Below, in pieces: positions 47,202 to 48,240 of a stretch of DNA of 64,000 nt. Positions within the stretch are counted from its first letter, which is position 1, and each line of letters begins with the position of its first letter. The DNA comes from Glycera tridactyla (Eukaryota). Made by a program: the position numbers and the translations under genes. The notes beneath the pieces were generated by a model. It was given only the letters and a program-made list of their open reading frames with translations. It ran no database searches and had not been told where the DNA came from. The stretch is taken from positions 36,270,001-36,334,000 of the forward strand of contig OZ286461.1 of NCBI GenBank assembly GCA_965644265.1. The letters are read 5' to 3'.

Positions 47202-47687
47202 TTACGATTTACTCTTTTTGAATTTCGGCGTAGGTAGCATTTGTCCGTACGAAACGCCCAGCATCAAAATCCAAACCTGTCAGTTCTGCGCGTTCAGACT
47301 GAGAAACACGATGCTACACACCACCGTTATTATCGCCAGCAGAGACTGCGTGTAAAATATCTCCCTCGACTGATTCGTTCTCTTATGAATTATGGGATCG
47401 AAATTAATTCCTCTGGGATTGACCGAGTCGTTTACCGACGTGTTCTCGGCTGACGTCTTCTCCTGTTGCGTTTTTTTGATTCTAGGACACGGTAGCATCA
47501 GTCCTATTCCGGTAGAGAGATATATGATCCACACCTGATCTTCGTCATGTCCGATCGCGATGTTGATTATACTAGCGATGACCACGAGAAATATCATGGA
47601 CGCCTGTATGTAAAACACCTCTCGCACCAGCACGTTCCGACGAATCCATGATCTATCAGCGTCTTGTTCTTCGATGGACTCCATCAT
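47202..47687 (-). CDS. Small membrane protein with two tandem helical-hairpin repeats, interrupted by an in-frame TGA at 47280-47282
   Basis: Repeat 1 REVFYIQASMIFLVVIASIINIAIGHDEDQVWIIYLSTGIGLMLPCPRIKK; repeat 2 REIFYTQSLLAIITVVCSIVFLSLNAQN*QVWILMLGVSYGQMLPTPKFKK. The frame ends with TAA 2 nt before the integrase ATG. Confidence 0.75.
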
Positions 47688-48240
47688 CACTCGTTGCGTG
47701 CGAACGAGATACACTTATGCGTTCCCGCAGGGATTCTAGAGCGCGTACGACGCTAATCCGACTCCTCTCGTTGTGTTTCATGCCCGTGATGATGACGACG
47801 CCCGACGAGTAAATCAAAAACTTCATTCATTTACCTACTCTCCAAATGAGCGCGTTGAATATCTCCGGTTCGTAGGTTGCGTTCTTCAAATTCAAGCGAC
47901 GCAGGTCCGGCGGTGGAGTTAACCTGACCGTTGCCGATATCGTGTTGATCTTGATCCTCTCTAGACGGGGACTCAGACCTTTTCTCTGCAATAGTCTGGC
48001 GTATTGTCGTACGTTCTTTTTAGCCAATTCGACAGAATTCGCTCCGTGAACCGATATATAACCGTTATGGAAGATGAGTGCCGTCGATTTGATCCTTTTG
48101 TGACGCCAGACGAGGTTACGCATCTTGGGATTGACGACGATTCCGGAACAGTTGCGATACATCCAATCTGAGTCTATTGACGTGTTCAAATTTGCGCTGG
48201 CAACGACATTAGTCACGCGAATGTCTACATTCTGATCCAT
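47656..48240 (-). CDS. TATA-box-binding-protein homologue, interrupted by an in-frame TGA at 47827-47829
   Basis: NVVASANL, NPK, TALIFHNGYISVHGANS, RQYARLLQRKG, TYEPEIFNALIWR, then past the TGA FLIYSSGVVIITGMK. Colinear with both TBP core repeats. Confidence 0.9.

Follow-up and report, generated by a model that had tools for sequence, protein, structure and literature searches.

A TATA-binding protein gene of Maverick elements and the variant TATA box that its product likely binds before packaging, integrase and capsid genes

The DNA analyzed here, hereafter the window, is a stretch of 64,000 nucleotides from the Glycera tridactyla genome (contig OZ286461.1). It contains a complete Maverick/adintovirus insertion, and a gene for a TATA-binding protein (TBP)-like product lies among the genes of this element. 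The features of the insertion, in window coordinates, are as follows.

31017..31022, no strand, left target-site duplication, 6 bp, GTGTAT
31023..53687, no strand, complete Maverick/adintovirus insertion, 22.7 kb (terminal inverted repeats, target-site duplications, gene set)
31023..31084, plus strand, left terminal inverted repeat, 62 nt, starting AGTAGT
35123..39336, plus strand, protein-primed DNA polymerase B (PF03175, E 5.6e-49)
~39.4-43.7 kb, repeat insertions within the element
43812..45149, minus strand, major capsid protein, double jelly roll (predicted fold)
45159..45452, minus strand, p97, a 97-aa basic conserved ORF
45445..45915, minus strand, putative penton/minor capsid protein (position)
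46060..47199, minus strand, retroviral-type integrase with chromodomain (rve E 2e-10, Chromo E 1.4e-8)
47280..47687, minus strand, two-repeat membrane protein (TM), 135 aa here and 161 aa in siblings
47656..48240, minus strand, TBP-like gene, two repeats, intronless, stop at codon 138 (Pfam, solved-TBP matches, sibling fold)
48225..48734, minus strand, low-complexity protein (LC) with conserved ends, overlapping the TBP start
48716..49054, minus strand, p112, a 112-aa basic conserved ORF
49089..49799, minus strand, packaging ATPase, A32-like P-loop (weak Pox_A32, E 0.006; conserved position)
49796..50104, minus strand, Bcl-2-like ORF (E 3.5e-4, under the curated cut-off)
50616..50942, minus strand, PC4-like ORF, ssDNA-binding/coactivator (PF02229, E 5e-8)
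53626..53687, minus strand, right terminal inverted repeat, 96.8% identity to the left
53688..53693, no strand, right target-site duplication, 6 bp, GTGTAT

Maverick ends are defined by terminal inverted repeats that start with AG and by a 6-bp target duplication, and both are present in this element. Its gene set includes a protein-primed polymerase (PolB) and a retroviral-type integrase, together with a double-jelly-roll capsid recognized by fold and an ATPase recognized by a weak A32 match, a P-loop and its position. Sequence searches with the capsid gave no useful match, and the protein is assigned by a predicted model (pLDDT 61) whose fold matches the capsids of PBCV-1, Sputnik and mavirus with E values of 1e-12 to 1e-9. 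The ORF at 45445-45915 has no database match and is presumably, from its position, a penton or minor capsid protein. ORF and Pfam searches revealed no RNA polymerase gene in the window element, and a TFIIB family search gave three exon-like matches, none of which is inside it. A protease-like ORF of clade II (described below) found no match as a query in the window element and two relatives, a search that a distant protease could escape; a protease-like gene follows the capsid gene in clade II and in several TBP-less elements, and was not found in the window element or in L063-L066.

The window element is decaying: PolB is split into two ORFs (35123-36694 and 36772-39336), and TM has 135 aa instead of 161. 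The PolB layout is common to the window element and its sibling L063/L064. Between PolB and the capsid gene, positions 39400-43700 are occupied by clustered repeats of 150-300 nt and by microsatellites, a region about double the length of its counterpart in the same sibling; one of the short repeats, near 39480-39610, reaches extreme abundance in the sequencing runs searched. Three runs that may derive from RNA, in the form of contigs, show low and patchy cover and carry no weight on expression either way. A tRNA-Ile(AAT) found by ARAGORN at 31238-31311 on the plus strand, ~215 nt inside the left end, may be a viral tRNA gene or a SINE-like insertion. Near the right end, two paralogous ORFs on the minus strand (51560-52516 and 52727-53515) are 41% identical and have no Pfam match. 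The PC4-like ORF at 50616-50942 is co-oriented with the TBP block, has related ORFs in L063-L066, L075 and L081/L082, and is a second candidate for a transcription or replication helper.

The TBP-like gene consists of 194 codons and a stop, and it is interrupted by an in-frame TGA at codon 138 (47827-47829). With an X at the break, its translation matches the Pfam TBP family over two segments (PF00352, E 8.5e-30) and has matches to 35 TBPs of solved structure at ~1e-17 to 4e-12, in agreement with the original prediction that both core repeats are present. That prediction also described a diverged, intronless TBP that lacks an N-terminal extension and is co-oriented with, and overlaps, Polinton genes. 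This description holds: there is no intron, the core begins 8 codons after the gene start, and the gene overlaps the upstream LC ORF by 16 nt and the downstream TM ORF by 32 nt, all three being on the minus strand. The stop at codon 138 occurs in one of nine close copies compared, the window's own, and readthrough or recoding of the TGA was rejected on this ground. The window copy is a broken gene inside a decaying insertion.

An AlphaFold model of a natural uninterrupted sibling, built from an 18-row alignment, forms the TBP saddle with a pLDDT of 91.8. It resembles plant, yeast and human TBP with a TM score of ~0.79 (0.79 to 1qn3) at ~30% identity, and viral TBP-like models (BFVD) fit it less well than cellular TBP does, at identities of at most 23%. 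The two repeats and the predicted saddle place the protein in the TBP family. Of the canonical set of four phenylalanines plus N69 and N159, it keeps F116, F190 and N69 and carries F99M, F207Y and N159T, while the canonical acidic TFIIB stirrup at the C-terminal side is present (E186 and E188 in all 37 rows of clades I and II). The stirrup reads EIFN as against the ELHP type of TRF2, from which the protein is also separated as a clade, and it is kept on a bare core, which differs from the domain makeup of the herpesvirus TBPs (ORF24/BcRF1/UL87). The element protein is a member of the TBP fold family, yet not a canonical TBP, a TRF2, a retrocopy or a herpesvirus-type TBP.

The gene is not confined to the window. 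Among 150 scored candidates in the genome there are 145 TBP matches, 18 of which have a stop inside the match; the codon-138 stop is private to the window copy. The survey for synteny that the original prediction called for finds the order ATPase-p112-LC-TBP-TM-integrase in 10 of 10 neighborhoods of 20 kb, whose TBPs are 35-98% identical, and Maverick genes adjoin TBP at all 12 loci from one other public assembly. A profile search recovered further short relatives, including 51 further clade members that are known from sequences without genomic context and are not counted here as Maverick genes. Scans of IMG/VR with the TBP alignment and with P0031 gave no relative. One clade II family occupies ~55 places at 38% identity and includes dozens of near-identical TBP copies, which points to recent spread. 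In clade II (L032-L047) no ATG stands close to the core in the TBP frame; the first one is found, at positions that vary, within the upstream LC gene, and reinitiation, leaky scanning and splicing are possible routes of expression.

Of the 125 rows in a tree, 88 fall into a single clade with an SH-aLRT support of 100 that excludes cellular TBP, TRF2 and archaeal proteins, as the original prediction had proposed to examine. This tree comes from a quick search with long branches and does not fix the root or the donor; sequences shorter than 140 aa were left out, cellular-like rows were thinned to 23, and 10 of 80 archaeal loci were used. The host TRF2 groups with two relatives in a clade apart (support 99). 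The only giant-virus row sampled groups with cellular TBP; it is L087, a contig from a giant-virus bin whose canonical TBP shares 54% identity with one from a protist. The element proteins fall into two clades, I and II, and the window TBP belongs to clade I. The same two clades appear in trees of the capsid, the ATPase and the integrase, which indicates that TBP is inherited with the element. The dN/dS ratio is 0.18-0.22 between subfamilies of the window TBP, 0.05-0.25 for other between-family pairs with measurable dS (leaving out three pairs with saturated dS, plus one in the other assembly), and 0.10-0.42 among very close copies, which differ by few changes. Absence or degeneration in other family members, named at the outset as grounds for rejecting an element gene, is contradicted by these ratios and by the 145 matches. 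TBP is a real, selected and lineage-wide gene of these Mavericks.

The surfaces of the protein were compared in yeast numbering over 16 rows of clade I, 21 rows of clade II and 88 rows of the whole clade, many of which are close kin. On helix 2, the side that faces TFIIA, TAF1, Brf1 and Mot1, the basic residues R137 (85/88) and R141 (86/88) are kept across the whole clade; E93 on the TFIIA side is mostly lost. The stirrup, predicted to be kept as YEPE, reads YEPEIF in the window copy, and its residues E186 and E188, which contact TFIIB (PMC12529657), are found in every row of clade I (16/16) and clade II (21/21). The DNA-facing side has changed. In clade I, V71, M99, S122, H124, T159 and Y207 are each present in 16/16 rows, and clade II has L71 (17/17), M99 (20/20), N124 (21/21) and S161 (21/21), with A or S at 159 and F at 207. 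Both clades mostly have Y120, S122 and S161 and have lost P191, which is replaced in 35 of 37 rows. Alignment to solved TBPs bears out two substitutions noticed earlier in the window copy, Tyr for the last intercalating Phe and Thr for the second-repeat Asn. The first intercalating Phe is indeed absent, but it was not simply lost, since Met is fixed at this position in 36/36 rows of both clades. The window protein also carries V122S, T124H, V161S, K120Y and P191N, which the earlier reading had passed over. As judged from these alignments, the DNA face is rebuilt and is invariant, or nearly so, within each clade.

The positions of these changes can be related to what is known of TATA recognition. 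The N-terminal repeat of TBP reads the 3' half of the box, wild-type TBP tolerates G only at TATA positions 3 and 6, and P191 has been suggested to admit T alone at position 1 (PMC1636458). The clade-diagnostic residues 71 and 124 are in the N-terminal repeat, and the boxes of the two clades, described next, differ at position 5.

A box of the form YATA[AG]G[AT]R recurs upstream of the genes on the minus strand of the window element, at the following places.

51369..51376, minus strand, box TATAAGAG, 434 nt before the PC4-like ATG
50164..50171, minus strand, box TATAAGTG, 67 nt before the Bcl-2-like ATG
50058..50065, minus strand, box CATAAGAG, 266 nt before the ATPase ATG
49086..49093, minus strand, box CATAAGTG, 39 nt before the p112 ATG
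49039..49046, minus strand, box CATAAGAG, 312 nt before the LC ATG
47712..47719, minus strand, box CATAAGTG in the 3' end of the TBP gene, 32 nt before the TM ATG
47380..47387, minus strand, box CATAAGAG, 188 nt before the integrase ATG
46278..46285, minus strand, box CATAAGAG, 370 nt before the putative penton ATG
45614..45621, minus strand, box TATAAGAA, 169 nt before the p97 ATG
45229..45236, minus strand, box CATAAGAA, 87 nt before the capsid ATG

The 6.7-kb late block of the window has nine boxes in the sense orientation and none in the antisense orientation; 38 kb of flanking DNA has 14 on both strands. Since most genes have a separate upstream box, the label of an operon, originally given to this block, is wrong. 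CATAAG is the top 6-mer of clade I and CATAGG the top non-repeat 6-mer of clade II; YATAAG precedes clade I genes and YATAGG precedes clade II genes at homologous places, which include a site inside the putative penton gene before p97 and one inside p97 before the capsid gene.

Enrichment of the 6-mer was assessed against 200 synonymous-codon (codon-preserving) randomisations, after six near-copies (L063, L191, L192, L199, L185 and L187) and two elements with TBP remnants and no late module (L190 and L198) had been dropped, a reduction that also applies to the 8-bp and distance counts below. In the discovery sets, the clade I box occurs 19 times in sense and 2 times in antisense (null 9.1, 0/200) and the clade II box 65 and 8 times (null 26.0, 0/200). 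Held-out elements of the other assembly give 23 sense and 1 antisense for clade I (null 12.9, 1/200) and 23 and 2 for clade II (null 10.5, 0/200). The held-out own set gives 29 and 5 for clade II (null 14.1, 0/200), and the two held-out own elements of clade I, with 10 and 2 (null 6.0, 11/200), do not reach significance. The YATAAG box noticed in the original prediction is thus enriched on the sense strand above a codon-preserving null. The box of the sister type is not enriched in any set, and canonical TATAWA shows no sense-strand enrichment in TBP-bearing elements against the same null; because this null probably overestimates TA-containing words, counts under it do not prove depletion.

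In its extended form the motif is 8 bp long, YATAAG[AT]R in clade I (42 versus 2) and YATAGG[AT]R in clade II (91 versus 10). This longer form was refined on all data and is post hoc, so that only the 6-mer tests are a priori. YATAAGT was rejected as the clade I pattern, being too narrow and undercounting clade I boxes. The TBP type of an element matches its dominant 8-bp box in 28 of 29 elements, the other being a tie. Position 1 is C in 67-75% of boxes, position 7 is A in 77-81% and position 8 is a purine in 86-87%. A box lies within 400 nt upstream of TM in 24/25 cases, p112 in 16/22, capsid in 14/17, ATPase in 13/18, integrase in 11/25 and protease in 2/13. For TBP itself, the 400 nt upstream are free of a box in 22 of 24 cases, and no promoter was found. 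Almost all boxes are at least 24 nt upstream of the ATG; several are 24-35 nt before the TM start, and many others are 170-400 nt away inside genes. An initiator-like peak at +33 is weak (31/132 against ~18, the best of 27 positions).

Mavericks that lack TBP provide a natural control. A capsid group that is not represented in the TBP list supplied eight loci, and all eight are free of a TBP match in 10 kb. Their slot is filled by other sequence: in L180-L187 the order ATPase-p112-LC-[slot]-TM-integrase is kept and the slot holds 1-3 kb of low-complexity sequence. In the capsid, ATPase and integrase trees, these elements are nested among TBP-bearing clade I elements with supports of 95-100, which indicates loss of TBP, and their abundance shows that the gene is dispensable. 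Six non-redundant TBP-less elements have 3 and 2 boxes in 47.5 kb; in TBP-less elements TATAWA occurs 32 times in sense and 33 times in antisense (null 21.7) and is not strand-specific. In L049/L188, a lineage sister to the TBP-less clade, the N-terminal half of TBP is fused in frame to the integrase through an internal deletion.

These results make it likely that Mavericks of this lineage use their own TBP to bind a variant TATA box and to recruit host TFIIB and RNA polymerase II (Pol II) to packaging, integrase and capsid genes. In the proposed mechanism, the TBP with its rebuilt DNA face would bind the box of its element, YATAAG[AT]R in the window lineage, and Met and Tyr, in place of two phenylalanines, would bend the DNA. 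The kept acidic stirrup would recruit host TFIIB and Pol II, and transcription would start ~30 nt downstream of the box, which would serve as the promoter of the late genes for packaging, integration and the capsid. With C at position 1 and G at position 5 or 6, host TBP would bind these boxes poorly, so that the late block would stay quiet in the integrated element until the viral factor is made. If the box lies at -31, the boxes 24-35 nt before TM would leave its transcript a very short leader or none. The box has the 8 bp of a TBP footprint and, in its letters, the YATA..WR shape of a TATA element. The absence of P191 together with a position 1 that is mostly C would be a specific fit between protein and box.

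The match between TBP type and box amounts to about two independent events on the tree, one switch and one loss, and any trait inherited with the same lineages would show this pattern too. The box may accordingly be a real late-promoter element that is read by another factor, either of the element, such as the PC4-like protein encoded in the window's family and some others, or of the host, TBP being merely co-inherited or active at other promoters. The varied distances between box and ATG add to this reading. On the other side, the length and YATA..WR shape of the box are those of a TATA element, the changed residues are the DNA-facing, clade-fixed ones, and box and TBP gene were lost together, and we consider another reader unlikely. 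The box could also be the promoter for the RNA polymerase of a helper virus, in the way that virophages borrow the promoters of giant viruses, with TBP working together with or beside that machinery. TAAG is the late core of baculoviruses and nudiviruses and is contained in YATAAG, and the element has no RNA polymerase gene. The clade II box YATAGG, however, has no TAAG at homologous sites, and almost all boxes keep the distance from the ATG expected of an upstream element. Polinton-like viruses have been reported in association with entomopoxviruses, in a study that has no passage on promoters (PMC11296320). A helper-virus promoter has a slim probability, slightly below that of the decoy considered next.

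The protein itself could be a decoy or competitor for host TFIIB, TFIIA, Mot1 or TAF1, or occupy host promoters, and so dampen host transcription, an alternative raised at the outset. The stirrup and basic helix 2 are the best-kept surfaces, and two of the four phenylalanines and N159 have changed. A decoy would have no need for a fixed DNA face, yet the members of a clade all share one face, and where the face differs from clade to clade the sense-strand box differs with it, which weakens the decoy reading and leaves it quite improbable. A recent retrocopy of host TBP or TRF2, passively carried and decaying, would be intronless and could carry a stop, as the window copy does. It is refuted by the identity of ~30% to cellular TBPs, the fixed position in the element, a dN/dS well below 1 and the clade apart from host TBP and TRF2, which are separate intron-containing genes; nesting within host paralogues, the other ground for rejection named at the outset, fails the AU test of the family and host TBP as a single clade (p 1.1e-110), and we give a retrocopy next to no probability.

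The preferred reading, a TBP that binds the box of its own element, can be extended to a lineage-specific, orthogonal TBP-TATA code in which protein and box changed together, from TATAAA to YATAAG to YATAGG; we hold the chances of this extension to be about even. If such a code exists, each lineage would use host TFIIB and Pol II to activate the virion genes that belong to it, and host TBP and sister lineages in the same genome could not activate them. Clade I and II proteins should then prefer their own box over the sister box and TATAAAAG, with reciprocal preferences among TATAAAAG, CATAAGAG and CATAGGAA and weak binding by host TBP. The protein would then represent an altered-specificity TBP of natural origin, able to accept G at position 5, and the elements would be marked as viruses with their own latent-to-late switch. 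To our knowledge, Maverick virions have rarely if ever been seen, and a named factor with a matching box makes it testable how Mavericks switch on their capsid genes. Two sister clades with reciprocal boxes and a third group with neither form a controlled comparison that is ready to use. Few surfaces in biology are as conserved as the DNA face of TBP, so natural variants accepting C at position 1 and G at position 5 or 6 would reveal the residues that set TATA specificity.

Adintoviruses and Mavericks share with the window element the protein-primed polymerase, integrase, ATPase, double-jelly-roll capsid, terminal inverted repeats, 6-bp duplication and a Bcl-2-like accessory gene (Starrett et al. 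2021, PMC8502044); a protease gene was not found in the window family by the search described above. In that study, a TBP label stands in the legend of a figure that covers related elements along with MELD viruses and belongs to the section on non-animal datasets, with no accompanying text, tree or promoter analysis (PMC8502044). One of its supplements has no match to TBP or TATA, and other supplements or figures may name the element. This label was the only mention of a Maverick TBP or promoter found in the literature searched, with subscription papers and Repbase outside the search; within the same scope, a reciprocal box switch between sister clades and a joint loss in a third were not found in print.

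Among known TBPs, the cellular protein is alike in its two-repeat saddle, N69, F116, F190, L205, S209, T215, E186/E188 and basic helix 2. The element protein differs from it in having no N-terminal extension, ~30% identity, a separate clade, residence on a mobile virus-like element, and the changes F99M, K120Y, V122S, T124H, N159T, V161S, P191N and F207Y. In the engineered TBPm3, a few DNA-face changes let TBP accept G in the TATA box, namely changes of I194, V203 and L205 that act at position 2 (PMC1636458); those of the element TBP are natural and fixed, and they lie centrally and in the N-terminal repeat, the reader of the 3' half. Virus-encoded proteins of the TBP fold are reported from herpesviruses, giant viruses and African swine fever virus (ASFV B263R) (PMC12529657, PMC5825884) and from mirusviruses (PMC10132985). 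The giant-virus, ASFV and mirusvirus proteins are less similar to the element TBP than cellular TBP is (BFVD identity at most 23%). These viruses encode their own RNA polymerase; RNA polymerase and TFIIB genes were not seen in the window element.

A further parallel is ORF24 of KSHV, one of the beta/gamma-herpesvirus TBP mimics, a viral TBP that acts with host Pol II at a variant TATA before late genes, and the element TBP may work like such a viral late-gene TBP; a variant TATA before late genes and a polar DNA face are seen in it at the level of sequence. ORF24 keeps the four phenylalanines and P191, reads TATTWAA, has Asn at the positions of V122, T124 and V161 and lacks the acidic residues for TFIIB; it adds Pol II-binding and extra DNA-binding domains and needs five other viral factors (PMC12529657). 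The clade I protein is, by comparison, a bare core of 176-195 aa that retains the TFIIB stirrup; in its box G stands at position 6, and in that of the sister clade at position 5 as well. Polar changes at the same three positions suggest convergence, which would concern the DNA side of the two proteins, whereas on the polymerase side they look unlike.
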